From Poseidonia sp. (GTDB lineage: Archaea; Thermoplasmatota; Poseidoniia; Poseidoniales; Poseidoniaceae): a stretch of 64,000 bases of DNA. Made by a program: the position numbers and the translations under genes. The DNA is taken from the NCBI GenBank assembly GCA_965661285.1, contig CBFIDD010000001.1, forward strand, positions 500,852 to 564,851. Reading direction: 5' to 3'. Below the pieces are notes generated by a model. That model did no database searches and was not told the DNA's origin. It was given only the letters and a program-made list of their open reading frames with translations. Numbering within the stretch: the stretch's first letter is position 1; each line of letters starts with the position of its first letter. This document shows, one piece after another, positions 14,529 to 49,230 of the stretch.

Positions 14529-17500
14529 TCAATCATCGTCTTCATCGTAGTCGTCGAAGTCGTCATCATCGTCTTCGTCTTCCCAATCGGCCTCGTCTTC
14601 GTCGAAAGCACCCTCACCGTAATCGATGGAGGTCTTGGTCGCCACGGTAAACACGATCGCCAACGTCATGATGCTGAGAATGGCGAACATCCACGCAAGC
14701 GGTTGCTCACGGACCGAATCGAACCATCCAAGGTACTGGCCGTAGGCGATGGTGACGGCGTGTTCGGCCGAGTTGTCATCGTCGTTGGCTTCGGGGACCT
14801 CGTCCTCGGCATCAACAACCACACGAATTCGGTCGACGTCTTCGGATTCCCAAACCACGTTCACCGAGTAGAGTTCGCCGGCGTCAATACCGTTCACTCG
14901 AACGACTTCGAAGGGCTCGTCACTTGAACCCGAATAGAAGGCGACCTTGAATTGCTGCGAGGTGTTTCCGCCTGCGTTGTAGATGTCCGCACGGACGTCG
15001 ATGTTCGCACCGGGAGCGATGTGGTCGTCACTCATGGCGATGTTCTTTACGCGAAGTTCGGGACCGACGGCTCCCAACCGTACCCACTGGCGCTCGAAAT
15101 CCGTATCTTCAGAGGCGAGTTCAGGGATGGGGCTGGCTTCAGAATTGGAGACGACGGGGAACTGGTTGCCCGCCGCATCGTAGCCGGTCATGTAGAAGCC
15201 GACGAAATCGCCCGCTTTCGGTATGACCGTTCCGCCCGCTGTGATGTCAACCACACCGGTCCACATCACGTTCTGGCCGTCCTGCTGCATCCCCAACAAC
15301 GTTGAGCCTGCACCGATGGTCATCGTTCGCGTGGCGTCTCGCATAACCCAGTGAACGAGTTGCTTTGAGCCGGTCAAATCGGCGTCCTCCGTTCCTTGGA
15401 ATTCGACTTCGATTTGCGTCAAGTCGTTGTTGGCCGAAATGTCGATGACGTTGAGCGGTGCAATGCGTCGAGTCACACGGGGTGCAGCGTCGTCAACGAC
15501 GACCTGGAGCGTGGTTGAAACCAAGGTTCCCGTCATGTCTTCGCCACGACCTGGAATATTGGTAATGGAGATGAGACACGTTCTGGATGGCGAGGATTGG
15601 AGGGTCGATGCCGAGGAGAGTGGCACTTCAACAGCGTAGCCACCATCTGCGGTCAACGAGCCGTCGGACCAGAGTTTCTCACCGTCAAAGACCTCGACGA
15701 GGATACCCACATCTCGAGGAGCGGGGGTTTGGCTGCCCTCGTAAACCACGCGGCCGGTGAAGGCCAAACGGTCGTCCTTGCGCACCCGGCTGCCATCGGC
15801 AACAGGACCGGTGCGAGGCTCGCTGATGTCCTCAACTTCGAAATCAGCCGGGGCCAGCATCAAATCGTTTTCAACACGGAAGGTGTGTTCGAGCAATAGA
15901 ATACGGGAGGCATCTGAACTGCCCAGTTCCTTGTACATCAGTGCCACATCGCCCATCTCTTCGTCAGGCCAATCCCAGCTGAACTTGAAGTGGAAATCAA
16001 GCATGATCCACGGCAGCCCCGACTCGTTGGTGGTCTGCATCATCGTGCTCGTTGGAAGCAGGTGAATGTAGGGTGAATCGGACCAGAAGGTGTTGTTGGT
16101 TCCCGAATAGGAGATGGATTGAGCGTCTCGAGCCGGGTTGGGACCTTCAAAGTCAAACACCAAGGAGATGAACTCGAAGTCAATCGCCGTGTTGGCGTCG
16201 ATAAATCCGAGCGAAATCGTCTGCTCCATGCCGGCGTACACCGGTTCATTGTCCTCATGACCAAACCATTCGAGGCCGGTGAAGATGGCGGACGAATCCT
16301 TGCGTGTTCGGAAGGTTGCGTCGTCGTAGAGGAAGCCTTCCGAGGATTCGAAGGAAAGGAGTTCGTCATCGTCGTTCATGACCGTGAAGTGGAGTGGGTT
16401 GCCTGCTTGGTCCCCGCCGTCCCAGAAATACGACACGCGCCCCATGTTGGGGTTTCGAGACGTGTCAATGGTCGTGATGAACCACTTCGCTCGAGCCTCT
16501 GTCGTGTTGGTGACCGTCTTCACCACGTACTCTTCGGGGTCGGCCTCACCGTTTCGGTTGGCATCATGGTCGGCTTCAACCCAGTAATTGAGTTCCAGTT
16601 CCATGGGGTGGCCAACCTTGTCATCAACGAGGACCTGGACGGTTTGCTCGGTGGTCGCTGCTTCGTAAGCATCCTCAACTGGTGCAACTTGCTTGCGTTC
16701 TGGATGGGTCGCATCAACGAGGTAGGTGCGTCGCCACTCCGCATTGGGTTGTTGCACGTGGTCGGGGTTTCGCTCGTTGTAGGTTTGAACTTCGTACGTC
16801 AGGCCGTCCGGGACGTCGATGTTCGGGAGATCGATGGAGACAAAGAACGAGCCGTTGTTGTTCGTCGTGTCCCTGGCCGTCGATTCCACGTAGCCGTTTC
16901 GCGAAATCCGTACGTCAAACGCACTGTCTTTGGGCGCGTCGTCCGTGTCTTGGAACCACATGGCGCCCACAAAGTGGAGTTGCTCGCCCGCCGCGACCCA
17001 TGAACCGTCTTCGACGTCCATGGAGGTCAGTTCACCGTCGTTGTCGCGCACGTTCAACCAGCCGAGGCCGAAGGAGCGATTCACACGGAGACCTTCCTCG
17101 GAGGTCAGCGGTTCGGGTGCGAAACCTGCGGTTCCGCTGTCGTCCAGACAACCCACGCGGAAACGAACGTTGTCTTGGTCCGGCATCTCGCTGGTGACGA
17201 AGAACTTCCAGTGAATTTCCAAGATGCCGTTGCTCTCGACCGAGTACGAAGTGGGGTCGACCTCAATGTACTGCGAAGGGTCGTTCGGGTCAGGGAACAC
17301 GTCCCCGTACTGCCAGGAGAGAATCGGCCAGTTGGCGGCACTTCCAGCGGTCATGAGGGTCAACTCGGCGCTGACCATCGAGTTCGCAGATTCACCGATA
17401 ACGTGTCGGGATACGACTTCGTAGGGCGTGATGCGCTCGTGAAGAACCTCACCTTCGGGGATGGTCAAATCGAGGTTGACCGTTTGCATGACGTAGGTGA

Positions 17501-19595: not shown

Positions 19596-19736
19596 GGTGG
19601 TCACCCGACATTTCCCTGTACGGATTCCATCGCATTTGAATGATGCCCTTTCACGGCAACCCACCAAATCTCCAAATTGAACCATGACAGGGGAGCATTC
19701 AAGGCCTCCAACGGCTTGGTGAGGACAGGTGAAGGC

Positions 19737-20129
19737 ATGAGCGAAGAGGGGACCTTCTTTGGACGACTTTGGGCCAAACAACATGGAAAACAATTCGGCA
19801 TCAGTGCCGTTGCGGCTGGGGCCAGTGCCACACTCCTGGTGGCCTGCATGTACCAGATTCTCTTCCTTCAGGACCACGCCGACTGGAACGAATTCACTGG
19901 AGCCGCCATCATCGGTTCCGTCGCCTCCCTCATCGTCTTCCTCATCTCGTTTCCAGAATACCTGCGTTTCAAAGGCTATGTCTCGGAACTTGAGGAATTG
20001 AAGGACATCCAGTCAACGGCCGAACTTCGCCGCAGGAAAGCCGACGGTGACGAAGCCGCTGAAGCCTTGGGAGCGGGGCATCTCGAGCAGTGGAAAGCAT
20101 TCCTTGATAGTCGCGGCGTGAAGCGGTAA
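19737..20129 (+). CDS. Small membrane protein (possibly DUF3198-like)
   Basis: 2 TM plus a helical C-terminus; AGGTGA SD upstream. The family assignment is tentative. Confidence 0.7.
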   Translation: MSEEGTFFGRLWAKQHGKQFGISAVAAGASATLLVACMYQILFLQDHADWNEFTGAAIIGSVASLIVFLISFPEYLRFKGYVSELEELKDIQSTAELRRRKADGDEAAEALGAGHLEQWKAFLDSRGVKR

Positions 20130-25478: not shown

Positions 25479-28400
25479 ATGTCCACGAAGGCGACCAGCC
25501 TCGCTTTTGTGGGCTTGTTGCTGCTCTCCCTCTTCCCGTACACACCCTTCGATAACACCGAGGAGGTTTTTCGCCAACCGGCGCTTGGAGACGCCTTGTT
25601 TTCTGGCTTCACGGTTGGCGGTGCTGACGATGTTTGGAACCAAACGCCGTGGCAAAGCATCGCCGTGCCCGAGGGGTTCTCCTACGAATCCGTGATCGAC
25701 TACAGCGATGTTGGGGTGCTCATCAACAACCTCTCGGAAGAAAGTCGTACCATCGGTTGGGCCTTTGTCGCAGCGAGAAACATCTCGCTTGACCGCGTTT
25801 TCCTCTTCAACGCCTCGGGAACACCAACCGGCGAGACCATCAACAGAAACCAATTCACCACCTATTTCGCAACCCCCTTCCTCGACATGTTACAGAACCG
25901 CACCACGGTGAATGGACTCAACTACCTCGTCACCACCAAGGGGATGCCGCTGCGCGTTTCGGGCGGCAACAACAAGGCCAGTTTCGACCAAGAATTCTCG
26001 CTCTTGGGCGGGGCGTACAACAACTCCATCGGCGGTGATTATTGGGTCACCCACGGCTATGGACCGCTTGCCGGAAAGGCGATGGAACCGTTCACGCGAA
26101 GCAAGTACGGGTTCTTCCTCGTCACCCGACTGACCGGCTACACCGTCGACACAGCGCTCGGCCTTATCGAACGCGCCAACCAAAGTCTCGGACAGCGAGG
26201 CACCTTTGTCTTGGACTTGGCCACCAACCGAAACAATTCGGGCTACAAATTCTGGAACGACGACCTCTACACGGCCAACACAACGCTCAGCCAAGGACTC
26301 GGCTTGCCTGTTCAATTTGATGAAGAAACAGAATTTTTGACCAACATCTCCAACGTCATGGGCTACGCATCGTGGGGAAGCAACGATGGGAATTGGAACA
26401 AAAATTACCTCCCAAACAGCGGATTTGACACGCTGGACACCTCGTGGCAAAGCGGTTCGCGATACTGGACGCACACCTCACCCACCGTGTCGCCTGAGGA
26501 TGCGTTCAACTGGTCGTACCAGACGGATGTGAAACAAGGCGGTAACGGCGCCTTTGAAGCCAGCCTGCGCACCGACTGCGACCAGGACGGCGGAAAAGGC
26601 ATGCAGGGCATTTACGGCGAATATTTTGACAACGACGGCGTCAGTTTCAGCGCCTCAACCATGCCGTCGCTCATCGACCGAAGTCCCGACCGCGTCCAGG
26701 TAGAACCTCATCTCAACCACGGTTCGTCCAACAACGCCTACCCCGGGCTTGACGACCGGTTCAAGACCCACTGGGGAGCGCGCTGGAGTGGGCTAATCGA
26801 TGTTCCTGAGACCGGAAATTGGACCTTTTTCATCAACTCCGACGACGGATCAGAGCTTTGGGTCAACGGTGAATCTCTTGCGACCAATTACGGCATGCAC
26901 GGCATGCGTGAACGTTCAGGCTCCCTCAATTTGACCGAGGGGCTTCATGAATTCCGCATTGAGTTCTTCCAAGGCGGTGGACCTCACGGCCTCATTTTTT
27001 CCTGGCAGGGACCAAACACGAGCAAAGCCGCTGTACCGCCATCTGCGTTCTACGTCGCCAGCCATGGTGTACCCGAATCCTCGAGGCTCGTCCACCACTG
27101 GGCCTTTGAAGACGGTTCGGGAACAACCGCCCTCGACAACGGCACGGATGCGGCCAACATGACGCTGACGGGCATGGACAACAGCAACTGGAGGGCCTGT
27201 GCAGACGGTTCCTGTCTGTGGTACGACGGAACCAATGACATGGCAAAGGTGAACGTGGACGACTGGTACGGGAACATGACGGTGAGTCAGTGGGTTTGGG
27301 CGAACACCTCAGCGCAATCCACCTATGCCTCGACCTTTGCTGTTGACGACCAAGCGGGCTCGAACCTGTCCTTCCAGCACATGATCTCCAGCAATAAATG
27401 GCGATTGCACAACAACCAGACCAGGGTCTTTGGGGACGTGGTCGCCCAGCGCTGGACCCATCTCGTTACCGTGTTTGACGATGGTGATATTCGGCAGTAC
27501 ATGGACGGCGTCTTGGTGAATAACGGCGTCTACCCCAACGGCTCGTTCAACAACATCGACCTGTACAAATTGGGCGTTAATCGGGCTGGAAACGCCTACT
27601 TTGAAGGCATGATCGACGAAGTCATGGTGTGGGATGTTGCGCTTGATGACGATGACATCACCACGCTACGTCGCACCATTATCGACAATTGCACCTCGTA
27701 TTCGGGGGCCGGAAACAACGTCGCCTCACTTGAGACCACCTTTGCTGTGCCAAGCCACCTCATGGACCATGCATGGAACATCTACGTCTATGGAAAGCGG
27801 GACGGTGAAGTGAACGGTGCGTTCCGATTGCATGTCGATGGCGTGGACACCAACGGGACCGTTCTCTCAACCAACACCTCCAGCGTCAAGACGTTCACAA
27901 CAAGTTGGGCCACGCAAACCATGCGCATGCGACCGCATGCCAGTGCAACCGAGTTGACCATCAATGTTCAACTCGACATTGAATCAACCTCGACGGTGGG
28001 TTCGCTTTATGTCGATTCGGTGATCCTGAGAGCCATACGGCCGCACATGGATTGGGTCAACGGTTCCATCGCCGATACGGCCGTCTCCACGGGGGGGCGC
28101 TCGTTCAACTGGGGGACGAGTTATGGGCAGTCGCTCATTGCGGACCTTCTCGAAGACGGGGTGTCGGGTGTCAAAGGCTACGTCTACGAACCGTACCTCA
28201 CGGCCGTTGGCCTTCCCAGCACCTTCCTTCCGACCTATGCTTCGGGCTACAACCTCGCCGAGAGTCACGCTGCCGCCAACCTCTACACGGGTTGGATGGG
28301 CGTGGTGGTTGGCGACCCCAAAATGGCACCTTACATCGATGTCGTTCACGACGTCAACCTCCTCGGCGTCCGTAGCGTTGGCGACGTCAACCAAGGCGAA

Positions 28401-30773
28401 ACCACCACGATTGAAGTGGCTGTGGAGAACCTGGGGATGGCTGCGTCAAACGGCACGCTTGAGATTCGTACCGTTCTCGGAAACACCCTCCTGAACATGA
28501 CCCAACTCAACCTCCCTTCCGGAGATGCAGAGGGGAGCCGAACCACGGTGAACGCGACCGTGGTGCCGCCGACGGATGGCTTGCTCGATTTACGTGTCCG
28601 ATACACGAACGCAAGCCCGGAGAGAAACTATGGCAACAATCTCCTTTCGTTCTCTGTGGACGTCAATGCCCCACCGGAAATTCTTGACGTGTATTGCAGT
28701 GCTTCGGCGCTTTCTCGAGGCGAGTACACCATCTGTTCGGTGGAGGTGAGCGATGATAAGGGCGTCACGAACGTGACCCTCGACTGGCAAATTCTCGGGC
28801 AAAACGAGAGCGTGAACACGTCCCGGTGGTCCACGCTGTACATGGGGTCGGTAAGCCCCACGCTCTGGGAGACTTCCCTGGTGATCCCGACCGACGCAAT
28901 GCTCGGGTCGGTCGCGCTGCAAGCCTTCGCCCGAGACGCCAGCAACATGACGCACATCTTCCTCGTGGAGAACGCCACGCGTGTGGTTGACGCACCGCGA
29001 ACGTGGTACGGCATCCACGTATCAGGGGTGGACCCGCCCAGTTGGAACAACGCCTCAATGTTGCCCAACCGTCCTTCCGTTGGCCTGTACCGACACAAAA
29101 CACATGCCCTGACCGCTTGTGTCATGGACGCCGATTACGAAGCCAACACGCCTGCTCCGTTCTTTTTAACCTCAAGAGGCACTGTTGGAAACGCCATCCT
29201 TCTTCCACAAACTGCGGCTCATCTCTACTGCTATGAAACGTCAATTACCCTCGAAACCGGAAGCGGATTGGACGACGTGGACATTGAACTGCGCGACGCA
29301 GCTGGGTCACTGCTGCTCCAAAGAACCGTCTGTGTGGCCGATAAGGCCCCAGAGGTGATCGTCTCCGTGGAGTCTGTCTCGGGACAACCGCTTGACCGGG
29401 TTGTGGGCGATGGTGATGAATTTGTGCGTATTACGGTGGAGGATGTTGACGACCCGCATACACCCTTTGTGGGTGATCTCACCATCCAATGGCCGGGAGG
29501 CGAGCCCATTCAGTTGCCCCTCGACATCGCCGGGTCGGAGAATTCGACCGTCATCCAACTTGACCAGGTGTTGATTCCGCTCGAGGCGGGGGAACTGACC
29601 TTGAGCACCACGGGCCGCGGCCAACACGGGGCGACAGCCAGCACCACGCTCAACCTTCCGTTCCTTCTCACGCCGCCAAAGATTGAGATGTTTGAGGCGT
29701 GCGATGAAAACGGCGTGGTCCGCAACATGACCTTCGGTCAAATCGCCACGCTGGTGGTGGTCGTCTCGAGCGACCGACCGCTTCAGTCCACAACGGCACA
29801 ACTGACCCAATCGGGATGGGCCATCAACGCACCGACGATGGACGCCCCTGTTTGGGGTGAGGGCGAAGCCCCCGCCTCATGCAGCATGACCGGGGCTGAA
29901 ACGGATGAATGGACAACGTTGTATCTCCGACTCAAACTGGACAACTCGCTTGTGGACGGCCCGGGCAAGGTGATTTTCTCAACGGCAGACCTTGACGGAC
30001 TTGTCCGGTCTCAATCGCTTGAGTTGATGTTCCAGCACGCCCCGACCATGCTCGAAAACCTCACGTTCTCTGAGGCCACTCCGGGCCTTGACCTCTACAC
30101 CAACCTCACCGTGACTGATTTGGACGGATTGGACCGCGTGGTCTGTGCGTTCAACCTCTACGATGCCGGCGATGCCTTGCTGACGACATTTGTAACCCAG
30201 GCTGGCCCTGAGGGTGTCTTCACGAACGCATTGTCGTACCGTTATCCATTGACGGCCGGCCTGGCCAACATGACGTTGGAAGCGAACATCACCTGCCTGG
30301 ATAGTTTGCAGCAGTCGTTTTTCCTCAACGCCACGGTTGAAATCGGTGAGGCCCCCCAGTGCATCGATTGCAGCGCAACGGAAAATACAACGTCGCTACC
30401 GACGACCGAAGGGAGCGCATCAGACCTCACCTTCGTGCTGCCCTTGGCTCTGCTCGCCTCCATTCTTGCCCTAACAGGTTGGTTTGTGAGGCGACGGGGA
30501 GGCGTGCATGAGGATGCGGTTTGGAGCATGGGCGAAACCGAACCGATCGTCAACACCGAGATGTTGTTTGACAGCATGGAAACCGAAGGGCTGTTGGAAG
30601 CGACCGTTGAGGACGAACGTCCCGATATCGTACCCGAAGGTTGGTCCGTTGAGGATTTCAAGCGTTGGTTGGACGGCCCGGTTCCGGACGGTTGGTCGGA
30701 GGAACAGTGGGTTCAGTACGTCAAGGCGTCAACCTCGGCCTTGGAAACGCACGCATCCAAAGCGGAAGGGTGA
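25479..30773 (+). CDS. TIGR03790-family surface protein with PA14, LamG and CARDB-like domains and a C-terminal TM
   Basis: LVTTKGMPLR, LVTRLTG, GYASWGSND; PA14 (NSDDGSELWVNG, IEFFQGGG); LamG (FEGMIDEVMVWD); GVKGYVYEPYL..VVGDP; TM plus tail. Confidence 0.88.
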   Translation: MSTKATSLAFVGLLLLSLFPYTPFDNTEEVFRQPALGDALFSGFTVGGADDVWNQTPWQSIAVPEGFSYESVIDYSDVGVLINNLSEESRTIGWAFVAARNISLDRVFLFNASGTPTGETINRNQFTTYFATPFLDMLQNRTTVNGLNYLVTTKGMPLRVSGGNNKASFDQEFSLLGGAYNNSIGGDYWVTHGYGPLAGKAMEPFTRSKYGFFLVTRLTGYTVDTALGLIERANQSLGQRGTFVLDLATNRNNSGYKFWNDDLYTANTTLSQGLGLPVQFDEETEFLTNISNVMGYASWGSNDGNWNKNYLPNSGFDTLDTSWQSGSRYWTHTSPTVSPEDAFNWSYQTDVKQGGNGAFEASLRTDCDQDGGKGMQGIYGEYFDNDGVSFSASTMPSLIDRSPDRVQVEPHLNHGSSNNAYPGLDDRFKTHWGARWSGLIDVPETGNWTFFINSDDGSELWVNGESLATNYGMHGMRERSGSLNLTEGLHEFRIEFFQGGGPHGLIFSWQGPNTSKAAVPPSAFYVASHGVPESSRLVHHWAFEDGSGTTALDNGTDAANMTLTGMDNSNWRACADGSCLWYDGTNDMAKVNVDDWYGNMTVSQWVWANTSAQSTYASTFAVDDQAGSNLSFQHMISSNKWRLHNNQTRVFGDVVAQRWTHLVTVFDDGDIRQYMDGVLVNNGVYPNGSFNNIDLYKLGVNRAGNAYFEGMIDEVMVWDVALDDDDITTLRRTIIDNCTSYSGAGNNVASLETTFAVPSHLMDHAWNIYVYGKRDGEVNGAFRLHVDGVDTNGTVLSTNTSSVKTFTTSWATQTMRMRPHASATELTINVQLDIESTSTVGSLYVDSVILRAIRPHMDWVNGSIADTAVSTGGRSFNWGTSYGQSLIADLLEDGVSGVKGYVYEPYLTAVGLPSTFLPTYASGYNLAESHAAANLYTGWMGVVVGDPKMAPYIDVVHDVNLLGVRSVGDVNQGETTTIEVAVENLGMAASNGTLEIRTVLGNTLLNMTQLNLPSGDAEGSRTTVNATVVPPTDGLLDLRVRYTNASPERNYGNNLLSFSVDVNAPPEILDVYCSASALSRGEYTICSVEVSDDKGVTNVTLDWQILGQNESVNTSRWSTLYMGSVSPTLWETSLVIPTDAMLGSVALQAFARDASNMTHIFLVENATRVVDAPRTWYGIHVSGVDPPSWNNASMLPNRPSVGLYRHKTHALTACVMDADYEANTPAPFFLTSRGTVGNAILLPQTAAHLYCYETSITLETGSGLDDVDIELRDAAGSLLLQRTVCVADKAPEVIVSVESVSGQPLDRVVGDGDEFVRITVEDVDDPHTPFVGDLTIQWPGGEPIQLPLDIAGSENSTVIQLDQVLIPLEAGELTLSTTGRGQHGATASTTLNLPFLLTPPKIEMFEACDENGVVRNMTFGQIATLVVVVSSDRPLQSTTAQLTQSGWAINAPTMDAPVWGEGEAPASCSMTGAETDEWTTLYLRLKLDNSLVDGPGKVIFSTADLDGLVRSQSLELMFQHAPTMLENLTFSEATPGLDLYTNLTVTDLDGLDRVVCAFNLYDAGDALLTTFVTQAGPEGVFTNALSYRYPLTAGLANMTLEANITCLDSLQQSFFLNATVEIGEAPQCIDCSATENTTSLPTTEGSASDLTFVLPLALLASILALTGWFVRRRGGVHEDAVWSMGETEPIVNTEMLFDSMETEGLLEATVEDERPDIVPEGWSVEDFKRWLDGPVPDGWSEEQWVQYVKASTSALETHASKAEG

Positions 30774-31654: not shown

Positions 31655-32740
31655 ATGAACAGACGAGAGATGCGAACGCCACAACCAAAGGCGCGTAAGC
31701 CAAGTCAAATGCGGCTGGCTGAAGAGAAACTCTCACTTCCTGCACGACTCACCCATCTTCGCCATCTTCCTTGGTTGTCATGCTATCAACGTCAACTCCA
31801 AACCGAAAACAAATCGGAAAACACACAAAAATCCTACTTTTACGGCCTGCGCCCGCTGATCGAGACCGTGCTGCCAGGCGAAGATGTGTTGAGTGAAGAG
31901 GCCTACAAACAACTGTCCATCGAAGCCCTCGCCGAACGCATGGAGCCGATGAAGGGACGATTGGACCTCTGGGCGCACAGCATCGCTGGCCTTCGGCCGA
32001 CGACCTACAATGCTCGTCTGGCTGCGGCGCGACACCTCATCAAGTGGCTTGGTTTGCTCTGGCCCGACCATTTACAGCGCGCTCGTACTGGAAAACGACT
32101 CCCTCGCACCCTAACCCGAAGAGAATTGACGACCGTGCTGGAGACCGCCGACGTGAGCGAGAATCCGGCTGCTTCCCTCGTGGTCACCATGATGCTTGAC
32201 ACCGGTTTGCGGGTGAGCGAAGTGTGCGAGTTGAACATCGAAGACATTGATTTTGACGATGGTTCTGCGCGCGTTCTTGGCGGCAAAGGTGACAAAGACC
32301 GTTTGGTCTTGTTTACCGCACGAACCTTGGCTCGCTTGCAAGCATGGATGCCGATACGCACACGATTGGCGCCAGCGGAGGAACAAGCCTGTTTTGTCAA
32401 TCGTCACGGTCGACGGTTGCAACCCCGAGGGGTGCAACGCATGATGGATGCACTCGGCCAAGAAGCGGGTTTGCCCAAAGGAAAACTCACACCGCACGTG
32501 CTGCGCCACAATTTCGCCACCGGCTTGTTGGAGCGAGGGGCCGACTTGGTCACGATTCAACGGCTGATGGGGCACGCCACCATTGCCACCACTCGCGTCT
32601 ATCTCGAAATCTCTGACCAAACCCTCCGTGAGGTCTACCATCGGGCGCAATCCATGCGTGAAGACATGGACGATTCGCCCATTGAAACCATCCCCGTCGA
32701 AGAGACCACCCCGTCAACGAGCACCCACGGCGTGGTGTGA
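31655..32740 (+). CDS. xerA: XerA (XerC/D-family) tyrosine recombinase
   Basis: KRLPRTL, DTGLRVSE, GKGDKDR, TPHVLRHNFAT, LVTIQRLMGHATIATTRVY (R-K-H-R-H-Y set). Exact start uncertain. Confidence 0.9.
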   Translation: MNRREMRTPQPKARKPSQMRLAEEKLSLPARLTHLRHLPWLSCYQRQLQTENKSENTQKSYFYGLRPLIETVLPGEDVLSEEAYKQLSIEALAERMEPMKGRLDLWAHSIAGLRPTTYNARLAAARHLIKWLGLLWPDHLQRARTGKRLPRTLTRRELTTVLETADVSENPAASLVVTMMLDTGLRVSEVCELNIEDIDFDDGSARVLGGKGDKDRLVLFTARTLARLQAWMPIRTRLAPAEEQACFVNRHGRRLQPRGVQRMMDALGQEAGLPKGKLTPHVLRHNFATGLLERGADLVTIQRLMGHATIATTRVYLEISDQTLREVYHRAQSMREDMDDSPIETIPVEETTPSTSTHGVV

Positions 32741-40981: not shown

Positions 40982-41965
40982 ATGGTAGCAGAAGATACTG
41001 TCTTTGCTGTTCTCTATGATAAGTTCATGTTTTGGTCCATTCTGGTCGGAATTTTTACTTTCGGCTGGTTGTTTTTGGCCATGCTTCGCTATCGAGACGG
41101 CGTCGAGCCCGATACCACACAAATCGACCACATCGAGGTGGGTTCGTTCCCGGTCGACCGACACAACACCAAACTTGAGGTGTTTTTCTACGTCCTGCCG
41201 ACGGCCATCGTTGCGTGGCTCATCGTCCTCGCCCTCTCATCCAACACGGCGGTTTGGGTCATCCCTGAGGAAGCCGAAGCTCACGACATGAAAATCATCG
41301 GCAAGCAGTGGTTCTGGGAATACGAGTATAAAGACGCCCTGACATGGGAAGACGACCCCGCCATCACCTACATCGACGTTGACTGGAGCGGTACGGCCCT
41401 GACCGTGTCAAGTACCAACGCTGCTGCGGTGAATGTTTCCATTCAGAAAGGTGCAGATTCCCTTCCAGGGAAGTCGCTTGACACTGTAACAGGAGATGCA
41501 CTCATCGAGGAGACCTTTGACCCCTACAAGCATTCCATCGTTGAGGTAACCGACGCAGACGGAAACGTGCTCCACACCTGGATGCACATCCCTAAGCAAC
41601 ACGTGTTCTCCTCTGCCCTTGGCGAAGACATGATTCTTCCTTGCGATGAGGCGGTCGTGTTTGAGATGCACTCCGCCCCCTCTGACGACTCTAACCCCAA
41701 CTACATCGGCGTCCAGCATTCGTTCTGGCTCCCTGAATGGGGCGTCAAAGAAGACTTGGTGCCCGGCATCGAAGGTGGCACCTACATGACCATCACCGCC
41801 GACGACCCCGGCACCTTCCCCATCCGTTGTGCAGAGTACTGTGGCAACCAGCACTCCATGATGATCGGTCAAGTCAAGATCGTCGCCGCTGAAGGCACCG
41901 ATTGTTCGGTTGACACCGGCGTCAAGAAGAGTGGCGAGTCGCCCCCTGCTGGAGGTGCGTACTGA
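40982..41965 (+). CDS. coxB: Cytochrome c oxidase subunit II with ~100-aa insert
   Basis: 2 TM; GKQWFWEYEY; CuA ligands VQHSFW and CAEYCGNQHSMM. Confidence 0.93.
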   Translation: MVAEDTVFAVLYDKFMFWSILVGIFTFGWLFLAMLRYRDGVEPDTTQIDHIEVGSFPVDRHNTKLEVFFYVLPTAIVAWLIVLALSSNTAVWVIPEEAEAHDMKIIGKQWFWEYEYKDALTWEDDPAITYIDVDWSGTALTVSSTNAAAVNVSIQKGADSLPGKSLDTVTGDALIEETFDPYKHSIVEVTDADGNVLHTWMHIPKQHVFSSALGEDMILPCDEAVVFEMHSAPSDDSNPNYIGVQHSFWLPEWGVKEDLVPGIEGGTYMTITADDPGTFPIRCAEYCGNQHSMMIGQVKIVAAEGTDCSVDTGVKKSGESPPAGGAY

Positions 41966-44286
41966 TGCGAGGTCGTGTCACGCTCCTGCTCGGCGTGCTC
42001 TTGGTCGCATTGATGGCCGCACCTCAATTCACAGCTGCTCCCGGCGGCATTGGCTCTGCCGGCGACCAAGGTTGTACCTGTCACGGCGGTGCCTCCCCCG
42101 ACACCACGGTTCTCGTGGACGGCCTCCCTGAAACCTACAACGCCAGCGAGACGTACACCTTCACCGTCACCGTGCAAAACGACGTAATGGAAATCAACGA
42201 GGTCGACTGGAACGGACGAGCCGGTGGATTCCGCATCCTCGCGTCCCACGGCGACATCACCGCCGTGCCCGAATCCTACAGCCAAATGATGGACGGTGGA
42301 CTCACCCACACGGAAGAAGCCAACACCGTTCGCTCGTGGACCTTCGAATGGACCGCTCCCGCTGCTGACGACCTCAACGTCGAGATGACCATTTACGGCA
42401 ACGCTGTGAACGGTGGAAACGGTGCTGGAGGCGACCACTGGAACGTCGCCACCGTCGCCGTCGCAGGGATCAATGCTGGCGCCGTTGCAGCCAGTGCCAG
42501 CGCCCTTGTGATTTTCCTGACCTCCATTGGACTCGCTGCCGGCCTCATCTTTGCGGGTATCTTGTGGGTGTTCTACCGCCGCTCACCCGAGACCTTCACC
42601 ATGGAACGGTTCTGGAGCTTCCTTAAGCCGTGGCTGACCACAACCGACCACAAAGAAGTCGGCATCATGTACTTCCTGTTCGGGTTCTTCTTCTTCCTCG
42701 TTGGTGGACTGTTGGCCCTGCTCTTCCGCATTCAGTTGGCGCTGCCTGAGAACGATTTCCTCACCTACGACGAGTACAACTCCTTCTTCACGCTGCACGG
42801 AACGACGATGATTTTCCTCGCCGCCATGCCGATGATTGCTGGATTCATGAACTACATCCTCCCGCTTCAAATCGGCGCCAAAGACCTCGCTTTCCCACGC
42901 ATCAACGCCATGGGTCTGTGGTTGCTCGTCTTCTCCGCACCCCTCATTTTCACCGGCGTCTTTTCAGGTGAGGGTGCTGACATCACGTGGGTCATGTACC
43001 CGCCCTATTCCTCACTCAACGAGGCAAACCTCGGGTCAACCCTCGCCGATTACGGTTCGAACCCCGGCACAACGGCGTTCATTTCAGGCATGCTCATGCT
43101 CGGTGCTTCCTCGACCTTGGGCGGTGTGAACTTCATCACCACCGTGTTCACCATGCGTGCGCCCGGTGTGACGTGGATGAAGATGCCGCTGTTCACCTGG
43201 TCGGTCTTCATCAGCGTGTTCATGCTCTTCATGTCCCTGCCCGCACTCATCATCGGTGTGGCCTTCCTTCTGTTTGACCACACCATCGGAACGCAGTTCT
43301 TCGTTGCCGGGGGCGACCCGTTGCTCTTCCAACATCTGTTCTGGTTCTTCGGCCACCCCGAAGTCTACGTCGTCATCGTGCCGGCCTTCGGTATCGTTTC
43401 AGAGGTGCTCGCCACCTCCGCACGCCGCTCCATCTTCGGCTACAAATCGATGGTGTTCGCCATGGCCGGTATTGGTATCGTCGGTTTCATCGTGTGGGGC
43501 CACCACATGCTAACCTCCGGTATGGACCCGTTCTGGCGTGCGCTTTTCATGATCATGACCATGCTCGTCGCCATCCCGACCGGTGCGAAGATCTTCAACT
43601 GGCTCGCCACCCTGTGGGGCGGCTCGCTGGTGATGAAAACCCACACCCTCTGGTCGTTGGGCTTCCTGGTCACCTTCACGCTGGGTGGTATCTCAGGTAT
43701 GTTCTTTCCCGTGGCTGGTCTTGACATCCACTTCCACGATTCCTACTTCGTGGTGGCTCACTTCCACTACGTGTTCATCGGTGGTACCGTCTTTGCCCTG
43801 TTCTCTGCTGTCTACTACTGGTTCCCGAAGGCCACTGGACGCAAACTCAACGAAACCCTCGGACTGTGGCACTTCCTCATCGGCTTTGCCTCTTACAACG
43901 CTGCCTTCTGGCCCATGCACGCCCTAGGTATCATGGGCATGCCTCGACGAACCCACACCTACACCATTGAATCCGGCTTTGCAGAATACAACATGGCCGT
44001 CTCGACCTTCGCCTTCATCTTCGGTATCAGCCAACTTCTGCTTGTCTGGAACATCATATACTCTGCACGACGTGGAGAACCCGTGGGCAAGGACCCATGG
44101 GGCGGCTGGTCCCTCGAATGGTCCACGACCTCCCCGCCGCCGACGCCTTCTTTCCACGACATTCCTACGCAGTACGATAAGAATGAGGAATTCGGTCATC
44201 ACAAGGACGAACCGTCCTTGATGGACAGGCTGGTGAAAGCAGAACCGAAAGGTATTGTCGTCGGTCATGTGGAGGGAGAAGAATGA
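41965..44286 (+). CDS. coxA: Cytochrome c oxidase subunit I (A1 type) with N-terminal secreted Reeler-like domain
   Basis: TTTDHKEVG, TLHG, D.AFPRIN, WFFGHPEVY, WGHHM, PTGAK, FHDSYFVVAHFHYV, GMPRR; ~220-aa N-terminal extension. Confidence 0.95.
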   Translation: MRGRVTLLLGVLLVALMAAPQFTAAPGGIGSAGDQGCTCHGGASPDTTVLVDGLPETYNASETYTFTVTVQNDVMEINEVDWNGRAGGFRILASHGDITAVPESYSQMMDGGLTHTEEANTVRSWTFEWTAPAADDLNVEMTIYGNAVNGGNGAGGDHWNVATVAVAGINAGAVAASASALVIFLTSIGLAAGLIFAGILWVFYRRSPETFTMERFWSFLKPWLTTTDHKEVGIMYFLFGFFFFLVGGLLALLFRIQLALPENDFLTYDEYNSFFTLHGTTMIFLAAMPMIAGFMNYILPLQIGAKDLAFPRINAMGLWLLVFSAPLIFTGVFSGEGADITWVMYPPYSSLNEANLGSTLADYGSNPGTTAFISGMLMLGASSTLGGVNFITTVFTMRAPGVTWMKMPLFTWSVFISVFMLFMSLPALIIGVAFLLFDHTIGTQFFVAGGDPLLFQHLFWFFGHPEVYVVIVPAFGIVSEVLATSARRSIFGYKSMVFAMAGIGIVGFIVWGHHMLTSGMDPFWRALFMIMTMLVAIPTGAKIFNWLATLWGGSLVMKTHTLWSLGFLVTFTLGGISGMFFPVAGLDIHFHDSYFVVAHFHYVFIGGTVFALFSAVYYWFPKATGRKLNETLGLWHFLIGFASYNAAFWPMHALGIMGMPRRTHTYTIESGFAEYNMAVSTFAFIFGISQLLLVWNIIYSARRGEPVGKDPWGGWSLEWSTTSPPPTPSFHDIPTQYDKNEEFGHHKDEPSLMDRLVKAEPKGIVVGHVEGEE

Positions 44287-45638
44287 GTGGCGGAGAAGCT
44301 CACGTTGAGAACAGCGTTTGGATGCGCGCCGTCTTGATCGGTGGCGTCTTCCTCGCCATCGGTATCCTCGCCTTCGCCACCATGGGCGTTGGTGTGGCCA
44401 ACATCAAACACCACGATTATGACGTCGCCATTGAGGAGTATGAGGACGCCAAGTACGCTTACGAAGACGCCAAAGCCAACGGTGCCAGCGAATCGGAAAT
44501 CAAATCCCTTAAGGAAGCCAAGGAAGAAGCGCACCACCATGAAATAGAAGCCCATCTATCTTACTTAACGTGGCGAACAGCAGGCATTACCATCCTGCTG
44601 ATGTGCATCACCTATGCAGCCTTCATGGGCCTGGGTGGCTTCATGAACTCGATTTATCCCGACGATGCCGGTCATGACGACCACGGCTACGGTGGCGATG
44701 ACCACGAGCACCACGGTTCAGGCTCGCCGATCGTGTTCTCGCTGGGTATTCTGCTCTTCTTGATGGGCTTCCCGTCCTTCCAAGGCGTGCTTGGTAACTT
44801 GCTTTCCGGCGTGGATGCCAACCTTAGCGACCTGGGTTTGAGCATGCTCGGCCTGGTGGTTGTCACCGCCGGTGTTGCCAACTGGTGGCGTGAAGACCTG
44901 CCGTTTATCGGCAATCACGAGCAAATTGCGACCTCCGATCCCTTTGAAGGTCAACACATCCGCAAGGCCGGCCTTTGGGTCTTCATTATGTCCGAAGTGA
45001 TGGTTTTCGCCACCTTCTTCTCGTCCTACCTCCGCATGCGCACAGAATGGTGCACAGGCTGGCAGGTCAACGCTGGAAATTGTGAGGAAGTGAACATGCT
45101 CACGGCCTCCGATTTCCTTCGACCCAACGGCGCCATGCTCGACGGACTGGGTGGACAAGGCGACTTCATGACGCTCTTACCCGGTGCCATCAACACCTTT
45201 GCGCTCATCATCTCCTCCTACACCATCGTGCTGGCCCTCAAGACGGCCAAGGACAAGGAGTGGACGGCCCCCTCAGGATTCATGGGCAAGCTGATGCCAA
45301 CCCGAAAAGTCGCTGTCCGAAACTACCTGCTCGCTACGTTCATTCTGGGTTCGATGTTTATTGTGCTGAAGCTCATTGAATGGAGCCATCTCGTTGCAGA
45401 AGGCTTCACCATCGGAACCCAAGCGGGCTCCATCTTCTACATCTCAACTGGCGCTCACGGCGTGCACGTCTTTGTCGGCTTGCTCGTGATGCTGTACTTG
45501 ATTTTCAAGGCAGGCTTTGCTGGAGACGATGTTGAATATGACGAGAGAAACGCTCAGGGCATCGAATACTTCGGTTTGTACTGGCACTTTGTCGACTTGG
45601 CTTGGGTGGTTATCTTCCCGGCCTTCTATCTGTATTGA
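44283..45638 (+). CDS. coxC: Cytochrome c oxidase subunit III with His-rich N-terminal extension
   Basis: NWWRED, GLWVFIMSEVMVFATFF, NTFALIISS, TGAHGVHV, GLYWHFVDLAW. Confidence 0.92.
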   Translation: MSGGEAHVENSVWMRAVLIGGVFLAIGILAFATMGVGVANIKHHDYDVAIEEYEDAKYAYEDAKANGASESEIKSLKEAKEEAHHHEIEAHLSYLTWRTAGITILLMCITYAAFMGLGGFMNSIYPDDAGHDDHGYGGDDHEHHGSGSPIVFSLGILLFLMGFPSFQGVLGNLLSGVDANLSDLGLSMLGLVVVTAGVANWWREDLPFIGNHEQIATSDPFEGQHIRKAGLWVFIMSEVMVFATFFSSYLRMRTEWCTGWQVNAGNCEEVNMLTASDFLRPNGAMLDGLGGQGDFMTLLPGAINTFALIISSYTIVLALKTAKDKEWTAPSGFMGKLMPTRKVAVRNYLLATFILGSMFIVLKLIEWSHLVAEGFTIGTQAGSIFYISTGAHGVHVFVGLLVMLYLIFKAGFAGDDVEYDERNAQGIEYFGLYWHFVDLAWVVIFPAFYLY

Positions 45639-45647
45639 GGTGAGATC

Positions 45648-46043
45648 ATGGGAGAACACGAAACAACTGGAATCTTGGAATCAATTGTTGAAAAACTGCC
45701 GGGTGGCTACGACATCTACTTTTGGAACTTCGTCATCTTGATGTTCTTCACGCTGTTCGAAGTCGCCGCCGTTTTCTTTGAGAAGATCCCCGGTACGGAC
45801 ATTGAAATTTCGCTCTACGCTGTTTGGGCTATCTTGATTGGCGTTGGTGTCATCAAGGGCTACGGCATCGCTGCCTACTTCATGCACTTGAAGGGCGACC
45901 CCCGTATCTACACCCGAACAGCGCTGTTCCCCGTGCTCTTTGTCTTGTTGATGCTTTGGGGTATCGGACTTTCCAACCCGGGTTCTGTCCAAGCGCTTCC
46001 CGACTGGTGCACGCCCAACTGGGAGTTTGCTAGCCAACGCTGA
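45648..46043 (+). CDS. Cytochrome c oxidase subunit IV family
   Basis: 3 TM; FTLFEV and AYFMHLK motifs; position in the cox operon. Confidence 0.85.
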   Translation: MGEHETTGILESIVEKLPGGYDIYFWNFVILMFFTLFEVAAVFFEKIPGTDIEISLYAVWAILIGVGVIKGYGIAAYFMHLKGDPRIYTRTALFPVLFVLLMLWGIGLSNPGSVQALPDWCTPNWEFASQR

Positions 46044-46052
46044 GGGTCAACC

Positions 46053-47579
46053 ATGCGAGCCAGCCAAAAAGCACTGGCCGTACTGATGCTCTCGGTTCTC
46101 CTGATGGCGCCCGCTTCTGCCTATCTTGGTAAACAGTTGGCACGCGGTCCGGTAGATGACTTCACGCTCCTCGACCACAAGGGCGAGTCGTACACCTTTG
46201 GAACGGACGCTGAAGGCGTGGTCGTCGTTTCGTTCATCTTCACCCGATGTCCGGATGTTTGTCCGGTGCTGACGCAGAAATTGATTGCAGTGGACGGGGA
46301 ACTCAGCGATGAGGAGCGGGAGGACGTCACCTTCGTTTCCATCAGCGTTGACCCCGACCACGATACGCCAGAGGTGCTCATGGAATACACCGAGCGCATG
46401 GGTGCGTCATGGCCGCATCTCACCGGTTCAACCGAAGAGATGCAACCGATTTGGGACATGTTTGGGGTGGTGGTTCAACAAAACGTCATCGACATGCACG
46501 TGATGGAGTACCAGCCCGGTGAAGCCTCCGTCACCGTGGTGGACACCGGCAACAACAGTTCTCAACACATGTTCGCTTGGTCGGGATGGAGCATCACACA
46601 AACGATGGCATCGACGGCCAATTTGAGCCTCAACACCTCCGTGCACAGCGAATACGGAACCACCGTCCACGGCATCAACGGCGTGGATTCACCGTCCGAC
46701 TGGTCGTGGTGGTGGGAGCTCAACCTTTGGAATGCCACCAACAGCTCCTGGGAACCATCCGATGTTGGCGTGGACAGCGTGGACGGGTTGGACCATCCAC
46801 ACATCGCCTGGTTGCCCTCAAACGGCAATCGAAGTGCGCTTTCGCCACCCCACGATGACCATGCGACAAGCTTGAGTGTGCAGTGGCCCAACGGTACGCA
46901 AGAACAGTTCGGGCAGGAGGCGTTCAACGCCTACCACATCACGCAAGGTGCGCTCAACGGGGCCGACGTGAACACGTCCATTGAACTCACAACCTACGGA
47001 CACTACCTCTCAAGCCTCGGTGACGAAGACGCCCCTGACGATTATGCGTGGTGGTGGAACCTCTACGGATGGAATGCAACCGACGAAATGTGGGAATCCT
47101 CCAGCGTCGGCATGGACGATTTCAGCGAACCGCTGCACCTCGCTTGGGCACCCTCCTACACCAATGCCTCAACCATACCAGCCCCAACCGTTGAAGCCTC
47201 TGATGAAACGGTCTGCAACGGACATGGATGGGAAATGGGCAGCGGCGAATCAAAGCACTGCATGTGCGACAGCGGCTACATCTGGGCCGAGGACGACCAG
47301 TTGAGTTGCGTGCCCGAAACCACCGAGGAATACAACGTGGGCCATTCCACCATCACCTACATTCTCAACGATGATCTTGAACCAACCGTGGCATGGACCG
47401 GCGATGCTTGGCGCGTCGAAGACTTCACGGCCGACGTGAGAGAACTCCTTGAGAAGGAACAATTGGGTGGCTACGAAGCCGGTGTGGTGCCCTCAATTTC
47501 GTTGTTGATGACCACCATCGCACTGCTTTCAGCCACTGTTTTCCTTGGCGCACGCCGAGATGAGACGGACGAAGAGTAG
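46053..47579 (+). CDS. SCO/SenC copper chaperone with two inserted DUF4430-like domains and an EGF-like module
   Basis: DFTLLDHKG, FIFTRCPDVCP, ISVDPDHDTP, WPHLTG, ~275-aa insert, YNVGHSTITYIL; C-terminal TM. Confidence 0.88.
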   Translation: MRASQKALAVLMLSVLLMAPASAYLGKQLARGPVDDFTLLDHKGESYTFGTDAEGVVVVSFIFTRCPDVCPVLTQKLIAVDGELSDEEREDVTFVSISVDPDHDTPEVLMEYTERMGASWPHLTGSTEEMQPIWDMFGVVVQQNVIDMHVMEYQPGEASVTVVDTGNNSSQHMFAWSGWSITQTMASTANLSLNTSVHSEYGTTVHGINGVDSPSDWSWWWELNLWNATNSSWEPSDVGVDSVDGLDHPHIAWLPSNGNRSALSPPHDDHATSLSVQWPNGTQEQFGQEAFNAYHITQGALNGADVNTSIELTTYGHYLSSLGDEDAPDDYAWWWNLYGWNATDEMWESSSVGMDDFSEPLHLAWAPSYTNASTIPAPTVEASDETVCNGHGWEMGSGESKHCMCDSGYIWAEDDQLSCVPETTEEYNVGHSTITYILNDDLEPTVAWTGDAWRVEDFTADVRELLEKEQLGGYEAGVVPSISLLMTTIALLSATVFLGARRDETDEE

Positions 47580-47622: not shown

Positions 47623-47708
47623 GCAGTCGTCGCATAGCCTGGTATTGCGCCGGATTTGAAATCCGGTGTCCCCGTGACTCGGGAGTTCAAATCTCTCCGA
47701 CTGCGCCA
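47623..47708 (+). tRNA. tRNA-Ser (anticodon UGA), encoded CCA, no intron
   Basis: Acceptor GCAGTCG/CGACTGC, D-arm TAGCCTGGTA, anticodon arm CCGGA-TTTGAAA-TCCGG, long variable arm, T-arm GGGAG-TTCAAAT-CTCTC, G discriminator plus CCA. Confidence 0.96.
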
Positions 47709-47766
47709 CTCCGATATCGACAAAAATCAGGGAAGACTTCTCAAACTCCACCCGCTCTCTCGGGGT

Positions 47767-49230
47767 ATGCGCAGAGGTACCCTCGCCATCTGTCTCATCG
47801 CCAGCATGCTTCTGGCTGGTTGCCTCGGACCCTCAACAGCCGAATGGGGAACGGGTTCGGGAGCGGTCCAGGTGGACTTCGCCATGGATGGCACCACCGT
47901 CAAAAGCACCTTGCTTGGTGAGTCTCGAACCGTAAGCGACCTGCTCCCGGTCGGTTGCACACCCGGAACAGAAGGCGGCACACTCGAAGCCGGTGCCGGC
48001 AGCCCCATCACGTTCACAGGCTATCTTGCTGCAAGTCAGTTTTACGACGCGCACGACAGCGTGATGGGCGCCCGGGGTCTTGACGTTGGTGTCACAACTG
48101 CGGTTGCGATACAGTCCATGCCCTTTGATGCGGCCGCCTCGGTGGTTGATGGCGAAGGCGCTCGAATCGATGTCAAGCAATGGGCGCTCCCCCTCCAGCC
48201 CGACACGGGTGCGGGAAGCGTTGACATCGATGAAGTCGATTCGGAGTCCGAAACCGATTGGTTTGTCCTCGGACTGATTCCAACCACGGAAAATCTCCTT
48301 GACGGCATGAAGGCCTTGGGCGAGTGGCATCAACCCGTGACGGTTCACGGTTACCTCGTATCTGCAGCCAACTCGAGTCAAAACGCCTACGGGTACCAAG
48401 CCACATGGCACAAAGCCAGCAACGAATGCGCATTGACGGTTGGATCGACCAACAAGGAAGACGCCTACGTGCTTGTCTCAAAGATTTCTCTCGACGGCGC
48501 CACCGTTTCAGCCAACGGTGAAGCGGACGACGAATGGGTTCAGGGTGATGTGCCCTTCCTCGGTCGAGGCGGATTCATCATGTTCTTCCTCATTGCTGGC
48601 CTTGGCGGTGCCGTCGGCCTGTTCATCGTCTCCAAACAGATGATGATGGGGGCAGCCCAGAAGAATATGCGGATCCTCATCGGCGACGAGGGCATGAAGA
48701 AGGCGGCCAGTGTCAAAAAGGACGCCAAGGCTGCCAAGAAGGCAGGTATGGAATCGCCTGAAGATCGTCAACGCCGGCAACAACGCGAACGTCAACAAGT
48801 CGAAAAAGAACAGAAGAGAAAACAACCCCCAGCAAAGAGCGAACCCAAGAAGAAGGACGAAGACGCCTTGGGTGGATTTGACCTTGACAGCGTGCTGGCA
48901 TCAACCTCATCGGGCGGACCCGGCGGTTCTGCCCCCAAAGGCCGAAAGAGTTCGGTGGTCGTCACCGAGGCGGCTCAAGAAATGGAACACATGAATGCAC
49001 AACAAGAGACGACGACCACAACATCATCCCTTCCTGCTTCGTTCTCACAGCAGCGCCGAAGTGCACCGCCAACGCAGACACGGTCCGAGCAACCTACAGA
49101 AGCCCCCGCCAAGCCCAAGGTCCGACGTCGGAAGGCCGTGAAGAGGTCTGCTTCCGAACCTGCAGAAGAGCGTGCTCCGCCTGCTGAACACTACGATGAC
49201 GAAGAGGACTTCTCCGACTTCTCGTTCTAG
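47767..49230 (+). CDS. Hypothetical lipoprotein/membrane protein with charged disordered cytoplasmic tail
   Basis: Lipobox-like LAGC, external domain, internal TM, K/Q/E-rich tail ending DFSDFSF. Confidence 0.8.
   Translation: MRRGTLAICLIASMLLAGCLGPSTAEWGTGSGAVQVDFAMDGTTVKSTLLGESRTVSDLLPVGCTPGTEGGTLEAGAGSPITFTGYLAASQFYDAHDSVMGARGLDVGVTTAVAIQSMPFDAAASVVDGEGARIDVKQWALPLQPDTGAGSVDIDEVDSESETDWFVLGLIPTTENLLDGMKALGEWHQPVTVHGYLVSAANSSQNAYGYQATWHKASNECALTVGSTNKEDAYVLVSKISLDGATVSANGEADDEWVQGDVPFLGRGGFIMFFLIAGLGGAVGLFIVSKQMMMGAAQKNMRILIGDEGMKKAASVKKDAKAAKKAGMESPEDRQRRQQRERQQVEKEQKRKQPPAKSEPKKKDEDALGGFDLDSVLASTSSGGPGGSAPKGRKSSVVVTEAAQEMEHMNAQQETTTTTSSLPASFSQQRRSAPPTQTRSEQPTEAPAKPKVRRRKAVKRSASEPAEERAPPAEHYDDEEDFSDFSF

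Follow-up and report, generated by a model that had tools for sequence, protein, structure and literature searches.

The window analyzed here is a stretch of 64,000 nucleotides from Poseidonia sp. (assembly GCA_965661285.1, contig CBFIDD010000001.1, positions 500,852 to 564,851 of the forward strand), and our subject is the gene that it carries for subunit I of an A-type cytochrome oxidase (CoxI). We found that the CoxI core is preceded, within one open reading frame (ORF) of 773 amino acids (aa), by a signal peptide, a beta-sandwich domain with a contracted C-X-C-H motif (CxCH) and one extra transmembrane (TM) helix, here called TM0. By family, the N-terminal part is a bona fide choice-of-anchor V domain, and its fold is Reeler-like. 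We regard both the fusion and its conservation as certain, and an assembly artefact is excluded.

We propose that a Sec-exported choice-of-anchor V sandwich was acquired at the N-terminus of CoxI, where one extra helix would tether it. A single heme c would be bound covalently to C37 and C39, with His40 as its proximal ligand and His115 probably as the distal one. Such a cytochrome, built into the oxidase on the CuA face, would let electrons enter there and would play the part that the cytochrome c domain has in caa3 oxidases; its likely donor would be a Rieske/cytochrome b complex without cytochrome c1. Electrons would pass from Rieske/cytochrome b to a stand-alone CxCH protein, from there to the CoxI-fused CxCH domain and on to CuA. 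To judge from sequence, we consider this whole mechanism, a tethered monoheme electron-entry module on CoxI, to be evenly poised between right and wrong. Its parts carry different weights: the domain quite probably has some cofactor bound and a role in electron transfer, and covalently bound heme c is slightly favored as that cofactor. The cofactor and electron-transfer reading draws its support from the invariant CXnCH motif, from His115 and from three independent respiratory or redox associations.

The N-terminal domain of CoxI

An earlier, sequence-only reading had described this gene as CoxI fused to a secreted Reeler-like domain that would act as a redox or metal-binding module. The signal peptide, the string GCTCHGG, the sandwich strings, the extra TM and the CoxI core that it listed are all present in the 773-aa ORF (Table 1). 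Its interpretation is supported in part: it held for the fusion, the fold, the conservation and the CuA side, and failed for a methionine ligand, as shown below.

In the predicted model, a helix occupies aa 2–17. Signal cleavage is likely after the conserved Ala24, as suggested by the aligned pattern ...F-x-A/x-P-x-G-I. The CxCH motif lies within G36-C37-T38-C39-H40-G41-G42, which is encoded at 42070–42090, with the codons tgt acc tgt cac for the motif itself. C37 and C39 are the only cysteines in the first 218 aa; as the sole Cys pair of the N-terminal part, they are unable to staple distant strands. The beta-sandwich proper spans aa ~45–168. Hydropathy windows 164–205 exceed 1.6 and peak at 2.41 (181–200) in TM0, which would bring the chain back to the cytoplasmic side ahead of CoxI helix I. 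Given the signal-like N-terminus, TM0 and the known topology of CoxI, the domain is predicted to be extracytoplasmic and on the CuA side, where the earlier reading had placed it. The core that follows opens with the canonical TTTDHKEVG and matches PF00115 (aa 232–685, 485 bits) and TIGR02891 (639.5 bits, slightly below its cut-off of 670.75). Its translation contains FFGHPEVY; GHPEVY provides the Glu at the end of the D-channel and is a hallmark of A1 oxidases.

The suspected resemblance to Reeler and choice-of-anchor V domains proved to be a real family match. The N-terminal part scored 94.5 bits against the NCBIfam model NF041895 (choice_anch_V; E 6e-27, aa 17–163), far beyond chance with a cut-off of 42 bits, and the match covers model positions 4–148 of 150 (145 positions). 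The N-terminal signal, CXnCH, and the blocks GGF, THT, W.W.AP, GN.VNG and D.W are shared with NF041895 members. No Pfam family matched the N-terminal part, and the Reeler family PF02014 (gathering score 21 bits) was absent even at E ≤ 1; relatives above the PF02014 threshold were found in loci L069 (36.1 bits), L071 (30.9 bits) and L063 (27.6 bits). A search of 1.84 billion representatives gave 908 relatives at E ≤ 1e-3 and 227 at E ≤ 1e-10. Most of the 150 best representatives have ~200 aa and consist of a signal peptide, the motif, the sandwich and a C-terminal anchor. The nearest ESM Atlas clusters are labeled 'hypothetical protein' and belong to Thermoplasmatota, one of them with PF02014 on 11% of its members. 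Our literature search, which covered papers without their supplements, found none that names choice-of-anchor V, MXAN_6652 or NF041895.

AlphaFold2 predicted the domain with a pLDDT of 93.1 both from a 69-row alignment and from an 85-row alignment of the mature domain (pTM 0.84 and 0.88). When the model was compared with the Protein Data Bank (PDB) by Foldseek, Reeler chains of F-spondin made up seven of the top eight matches (E 6.7e-6 to 1.3e-4, TMq 0.47–0.53), followed by pilins, cohesins and other Ig-like domains. Cytochrome f chains were found at E 4e-4 to 1e-3 and TMq 0.47–0.59 (1ctm, E 4.2e-4 and TMq 0.47; 2jxm_B, TMq 0.51), and cytochrome f was the sole heme protein among the matches listed, to rank 50. 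A PDB sequence search with the N-terminal part (protein P0002) had 0 matches, and a profile search of the PDB sequences gave a marginal match to F-spondin only (E 0.019–0.032). The HMMER alignment with F-spondin begins past the CXnCH segment and has a non-His residue opposite His115. By this alignment, the N-terminal CXnCH segment appears to be a feature that the solved Reeler domain lacks. The Cox11, PCuAC, CopC and cupredoxin families gave no Pfam or NCBIfam match to the N-terminal part and were absent among the Foldseek matches listed, to rank 50. A Cox11/PCuAC-like chaperone fold was set aside on these two grounds.

The fold also fits a domain without any cofactor, which we consider improbable. 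The Cys pair would close a short local loop as a disulfide, and the sandwich would be a structural or adhesive ectodomain that contacts the S-layer, stabilizes or helps to assemble the oxidase, or binds a partner. The nearest solved folds (Reeler, pilins, cohesins and adhesin domains) suit such a role, as do the many bacterial members that are N-terminal modules of large repeat proteins secreted by the type IX secretion system (T9SS) and the lack of visible maturation genes in the window ORFs and scanned flanks. However, a disulfide leaves the invariant His after the second Cys and the conserved His115 unexplained, and adhesion does not account for the associations with CoxI, with a Rieske/cytochrome b operon and with a plastocyanin-like domain. 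The CXnCH segment and His115 also have no counterpart in the F-spondin alignment.

Conservation of the fusion and of the motif

We found 85 database proteins of 430–795 aa that match aa 1–220 of the window protein, and PF00115 is annotated on all of them. The named carriers are metagenome-assembled genomes (MAGs) of Poseidoniaceae, Thermoplasmatota or Euryarchaeota. CxCH is kept in 84 of these 85 proteins; the exception is a singleton that reads R-S-C-H. In the GTDB collection with one genome per species, relatives are encoded in 96 stretches; we retained 78 loci. The query of this locus search was the single protein P0002, which favors close relatives, so that bacterial and stand-alone loci are a thin sample. 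The domain and the GHPEVY of CoxI were found in one ORF in 50 of the 54 archaeal loci (L001–L054), and the other four reach a contig edge. CxCH was present in 53 of the 54; L048, which lacks it, starts mid-domain. Both the presence of the fusion in relatives and the conservation of CxCH, on which the sequence-only reading depended, are borne out by these counts.

The closest relatives of the N-terminal part among species genomes are Poseidonia or Poseidoniaceae MAGs of Marine Group IIa (MGIIa), with 92–96% identity. The fusion loci extend from Poseidoniaceae to Thalassarchaeaceae (MGIIb; L051) and to the distant archaeal MAGs L053 and L054. Identity is 45–46% for L051 and L052 (titled only Poseidoniales) and 34–36% for L053 and L054. 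Locus L001 (NZEQ01000060.1) is titled as a Verrucomicrobiales MAG; its CoxI fusion is 96% identical to the window gene, and the contig is probably mis-binned. A quick maximum-likelihood tree of 151 domains was calculated with SH-aLRT support only; it leaves many forks open, and fragments probably account for several of its 'alone' rows. The fused forms of MGII form one clade of 22 rows (98), and other fused forms (L053/L054/P0127; P0126; P0218; P0067) are placed elsewhere among stand-alone rows. Because of the open forks and the probable fragments, we do not use the tree to say how many times the fusion arose.

C37, C39, H40, G88, W125 and D157 are invariant in 69 of 69 family members, and H115 is kept in at least 90%. 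Among the fused forms, C37, C39, H40 and H115 are each present in 42 of 42. A comparison of 33 domains from archaea and seven bacterial phyla gave C37, C39 and H40 in all 33, W125 and D157 in 32, and at position 115 His in 29 and Gln in four. M108 and M109 are variable across the family. The sequence-only reading had offered either a Met of QMMDGG or the His of LTH as distal ligand; the former is not supported by this variation, and the latter, H115, stands as the candidate.

The number of residues between the two Cys varies among the 33 domains (n = 1 in 8, n = 2 in 17, n = 3 in 3 and n = 4 in 5), and the CH pair is fixed. The eight with n = 1 come from archaea, except for one Eisenbacteria protein. 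Bacterial relatives with CxxCH, which the earlier reading had expected, are present among the aligned domains and the loci. Among the 150 best representatives, 138 have CxCH, 2 have CxxCH and 10 have neither; the last group includes N-terminally truncated sequences and two proteins with a longer Cys spacing (P0208 and P0217, the latter with eight residues between the Cys). Natural heme c attachment sites vary in Cys spacing in the same C-Xn-C-H manner, and a contracted CXCH heme site is reportedly present in one anammox multiheme cytochrome. Variable spacing with a fixed CH speaks for heme c, because a metal site or a disulfide would more likely keep one spacing.

The main rival reading, which we regard as unlikely, is that Cys37, Cys39, His40 and His115 instead coordinate a metal, with Cu the likeliest ion and Zn or Fe as possibilities. 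The site would be a mononuclear redox centre that feeds CuA, or the domain would be a tethered copper chaperone or store for CuA/CuB assembly. Two conserved Cys and two His are a classic ligand set, and copper is suggested by a SCO1/SenC copper chaperone in the same operon, a His-rich insert in CoxIII and one relative fused to a blue-copper domain. A metal could also be loaded outside the cell without a heme maturation system, and none was found nearby. However, a Cys spacing of 1 to 4 with CH fixed is unusual for a tetrahedral site and typical of heme c, position 115 is Gln in 4 of the 33 domains, and the matches to copper families considered above are missing.

A Rieske-like [2Fe-2S] cluster on the 2-Cys/2-His set is very improbable. 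The ligand count fits, and G-C-x-C-H-G resembles box II (C-P-C-H-G) and the CPCH box of a Rieske-like protein encoded beside stand-alone relatives in loci L055 and L057. However, the N-terminal part has just two Cys and lacks the second box (C-x-H-x-G-C). The window protein (MRGRV) has no twin-arginine (TAT) signal, whereas the L055/L057 Rieske-like protein has one. Variable Cys spacing is unfit for a fixed cluster geometry, and no Rieske model in Pfam or NCBIfam matched the N-terminal part. With one box only, no TAT signal and no family match, this candidate was set aside.

Redox associations and the proposed electron route

A respiratory operon with a stand-alone member of 229 or 238 aa directly upstream occurs in two loci, L055 (which bears the title marine group III) and L057 (uncultured archaeon). 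This member reads C-S-C-H, has a C-terminal TM and matches NF041895 with 72–75 bits. The operon encodes a Rieske-like protein with a TAT signal and the boxes CPHLCC and CPCH, a cytochrome b6-like protein, a subunit-IV-like protein with a 4Fe-4S module, a CCG-domain protein and a ferredoxin. A small DUF7318 protein is encoded ahead of the Rieske-like gene (the ORF was called in L055 only). From its position, the stand-alone CxCH gene would occupy the slot expected of a cytochrome c1 or f gene.

The Rieske-like protein itself (L055:1760-2440, L057:11018-11692) scores below all curated cut-offs (TIGR01416, cluster region, 33 bits versus 97). The 4Fe-4S, CCG (HdrB-like) and ferredoxin/flavodoxin modules that come next in both loci suggest an unusual complex III.

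Other relatives also occur in redox settings. The metagenomic protein P0179 (647 aa) joins the domain (C-K-C-H) to CARDB repeats, a domain of the plastocyanin/azurin family and a PGF-CTERM-like tail. Locus L072 has two copies beside EB_dh and Cytochrome_C554 genes, and in L061 and L075 a copy lies one or two genes from a pyrroloquinoline quinone (PQQ) dehydrogenase. In L065 (5537-7066) a second copy is fused to a DUF5777 membrane beta-barrel, an architecture that recalls fused cytochrome-porins such as Cyc2. In L062 (10001-12819), a family member and a YceI-like gene were seen near a DUF5777 beta-barrel. Searching for homologues of P0099 yielded 8 proteins. The redox role assigned by the sequence-only reading gains support from the paralogue at the Rieske/cytochrome b operon and from the plastocyanin-like fusion.

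Several observations weigh against heme c and the proposed route. Ccm/Ccs maturation genes were not found with Pfam in the 35 window ORFs of at least 150 aa, nor in the flanks of L053 and of L055–L078 excluding L060, and no WWD-type heme-handling motif occurs in 9,570 ORFs of the window and the 78 loci; these scans cover neighbourhoods, not whole genomes. A survey of archaeal cytochromes c from 2015 reports them in just two single-cell genomes of Thermoplasmatales (PMC4429474); it describes pattern searches for heme c attachment sites and for that reason possibly missed CxCH. The operon link is effectively that of one lineage, because L055 and L057 are near-identical. Many members in Bacteroidota and Opitutales head SprB, InlB-B or PKD surface proteins with T9SS tails and have no evident redox context. 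His115 is replaced by Gln in four of the 33 domains. Heme binding is not known for the Reeler domains that lead the structural matches, and the likeness to cytochrome f is no better than that to pilins and other Ig-like domains (TMq 0.4–0.5).

Marine Group II (MGII) archaea rank with the most abundant heterotrophs in surface waters of the ocean; we know of no cultured member. The window CoxII has COX2 as its sole Pfam domain, no cytochrome c domain in Pfam or NCBIfam and no CxxCH in its sequence, in agreement with the earlier reading. MGII genomes are described as having cytochrome b and Rieske genes without canonical bc1 genes, and their complex III is called MGII-specific (Tully, 2019, PMC6336850). 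With no cytochrome c domain on CoxII and no canonical bc1 genes in MGII, the respiratory chain has a gap between Rieske/cytochrome b and CuA. The same literature search found no paper that links MGII with cytochrome c maturation or with heme-copper oxidase architecture, and neither 'cytochrome' nor 'heme' occurs as a word in the main text of PMC6461757 or PMC10783094. A complex prediction of the soluble domain of CoxII (aa 88–327), the N-terminal domain (aa 24–175) and heme gave no answer (score 0.00 in both runs) and speaks neither for nor against docking.

The tethered CxCH domain on CoxI, together with the paralogue at the Rieske/cytochrome b operon of relatives, is a concrete candidate for the missing electron link of MGII. 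More tentatively, choice-of-anchor V may be an unrecognized class of beta-sandwich monoheme c-type cytochromes with C-X(1–4)-C-H. Planktonic Thermoplasmatota (MGII and the L055/L057 lineage) would then have two paralogues: a membrane-anchored copy at the b complex that replaces c1 or f, and a copy on CoxI that passes the electron to CuA, so that no soluble carrier would be needed. We regard this wider proposal as possible rather than probable; if true, it would imply a heme-attachment route capable of CxCH in archaea without an annotated one. If heme is bound, the few c-type cytochromes known to be non-helical would be joined by one with a Reeler-like fold, a function could be assigned to choice-of-anchor V and its 908 representatives, and a question would be raised about what the conserved residues of eukaryotic Reeler domains do. 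If copper is bound, the domain would give this oxidase an attached metal centre of a new type.

The cox operon and comparison with known systems

The fused gene is the second of five in a cox operon on the + strand at 40982–47579 (coxII, coxI, coxIII, coxIV and a SCO1/SenC fusion; Table 1).

Table 1. Features of the cox operon and of the fused coxI gene (window positions)
Feature	Position	Strand	Evidence
coxII, 327 aa	40982..41965	+	PF00116 and TIGR02866 matches
Whole fused coxI, 773 aa: signal peptide, CxCH beta-sandwich, extra TM, CoxI	41965..44286	+	
Signal-peptide-like hydrophobic segment, aa 1–24	41965..42036	+	Hydropathy windows 1–26 >1.6
Choice-of-anchor V / Reeler-like beta-sandwich domain, aa 17–163	42013..42453	+	NF041895, AlphaFold2, Foldseek
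C37-T38-C39-H40, contracted C-X-C-H, candidate heme attachment site	42073..42084	+	Invariant in homologues
His115 (in LTHT), candidate distal ligand	42307..42309	+	Conserved in alignments
Linker and extra transmembrane helix TM0 (about aa 173–205)	42454..42579	+	Hydropathy
CoxI core, A-type, aa 223–735, GHPEVY in helix VI	42631..44169	+	TIGR02891, PF00115
coxIII, 451 aa	44283..45638	+	PF00510 match limited to aa 344–450
coxIV, 131 aa	45648..46043	+	PF03626, 45.9 bits
SCO1/SenC copper chaperone (aa 36–145) fusion, 508 aa	46053..47579	+	PF02630, 92.3 bits

The stop codon of coxII and the ATG of coxI overlap by 1 nt (TGATG), and the start of coxIII overlaps the coxI stop by 4 nt. CoxII contains the CuA motif C-x-E-x-C-G-x-x-H-x-x-M, and a coxII ORF with a CuA motif lies directly upstream of coxI in 49 of the 53 loci examined; three of the four misses are on contigs that begin too near, and the remaining one is L010. 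The Pfam COX2 match to the window CoxII is split into two stretches. An insertion of ~90–100 aa (aa ~118–215) separates the QWFWEYEY strand from the rest of the cupredoxin domain; this segment is kept in the alignment of Poseidoniales CoxII, and CoxII of L053/L054 has just 244 aa. CoxIII has an N-terminal extension of ~300 aa, in which a stretch rich in His and Asp (HDDHGYGGDDHEHHGSG) and additional hydrophobic segments occur. In L019 (10001-13720), CoxI and CoxIII are a single ORF of 1240 aa, possibly a real fusion and possibly a sequencing frameshift.

The SCO1/SenC protein (CPDVCP motif) has a C-terminal extension of ~360 aa that contains two Trp-rich repeats (WWW.L..WNAT..W) and a Cys-rich EGF-like piece and ends in a TM. 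The SCO1 gene of L053 carries a thioredoxin-like domain instead, and Redoxin and VKOR genes come after it. In L053 and L054, ctaA and ctaB precede the cox operon.

Elsewhere in the window, a Pfam scan identified genes for PolD DP2, Hjc and the primase large subunit, which mark the DNA as archaeal. A tRNA-Ser (tga) at 47623–47708 overlaps the listed TTG start of a 524-aa ORF (47656–49230); this ORF encodes a secreted, membrane-anchored protein whose true start is probably further downstream. Three very large secreted proteins are encoded at 14529–19877 (−; 1782 aa, with CARDB), 25479–30773 (+; 1764 aa, with PA14 and LamG) and 7801–11004 (+; 1067 aa, with TIG/TSP3). Next to these is a gene for a tyrosine recombinase (31655–32740, +; Phage_integrase, 133 bits).

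The term choice-of-anchor refers to a domain behind which the C-terminal sorting or anchor signal can be of various types. Typical NF041895 members have ~200 aa and end in a PGF-CTERM-like tail, a T9SS tail or a single TM, whereas the anchor TM of the window domain continues into the 12-helix CoxI. MXAN_6652 (NF041894) is a related family. Choice-of-anchor V has no characterized member and none with a tested function. The Reeler domain (PF02014; F-spondin 3coo, 2zou and 2zot) is the best structural match of the window domain, and by the F-spondin alignment only the window domain has the CXnCH segment and His115.

In caa3 oxidases (Thermus, Bacillus), a cytochrome c domain is fused to subunit II. 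The window oxidase resembles them as an A-type oxidase with a tethered extracytoplasmic module, a heme c-type motif and a proposed hand-over of electrons to CuA. The two differ in that the module is at the N-terminus of subunit I here and at the C-terminus of subunit II in caa3, and in that a beta-sandwich with CxCH takes the place of an all-alpha class I cytochrome c with CxxCH.

Cytochrome f (1ctm, 2e74_C, 7zyv_C, 2jxm_B and 1e2z_A) is the only beta-sandwich c-type cytochrome among the Foldseek matches listed. It consists of a signal peptide, a heme motif near the mature N-terminus, the sandwich and a C-terminal TM. The stand-alone paralogues share this layout and have their gene beside Rieske and cytochrome b6-like genes. 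The window domain differs from cytochrome f in that there is no sequence or profile match, the small domain is missing and the similarity of fold is generic only.

In the anammox cytochrome with CXCH, the motif is one site in a multiheme, mainly helical protein. Here it is the sole motif and, as found in 138 of the 150 best representatives, the norm throughout an archaeal branch of a beta-sandwich family. Precedents exist for oxidases that include their own cytochrome (caa3) and for one beta-sandwich c-type cytochrome (cytochrome f). What would be new, if our proposal is true, is the domain itself, which comes from an uncharacterized family, its place on subunit I and its contracted motif.

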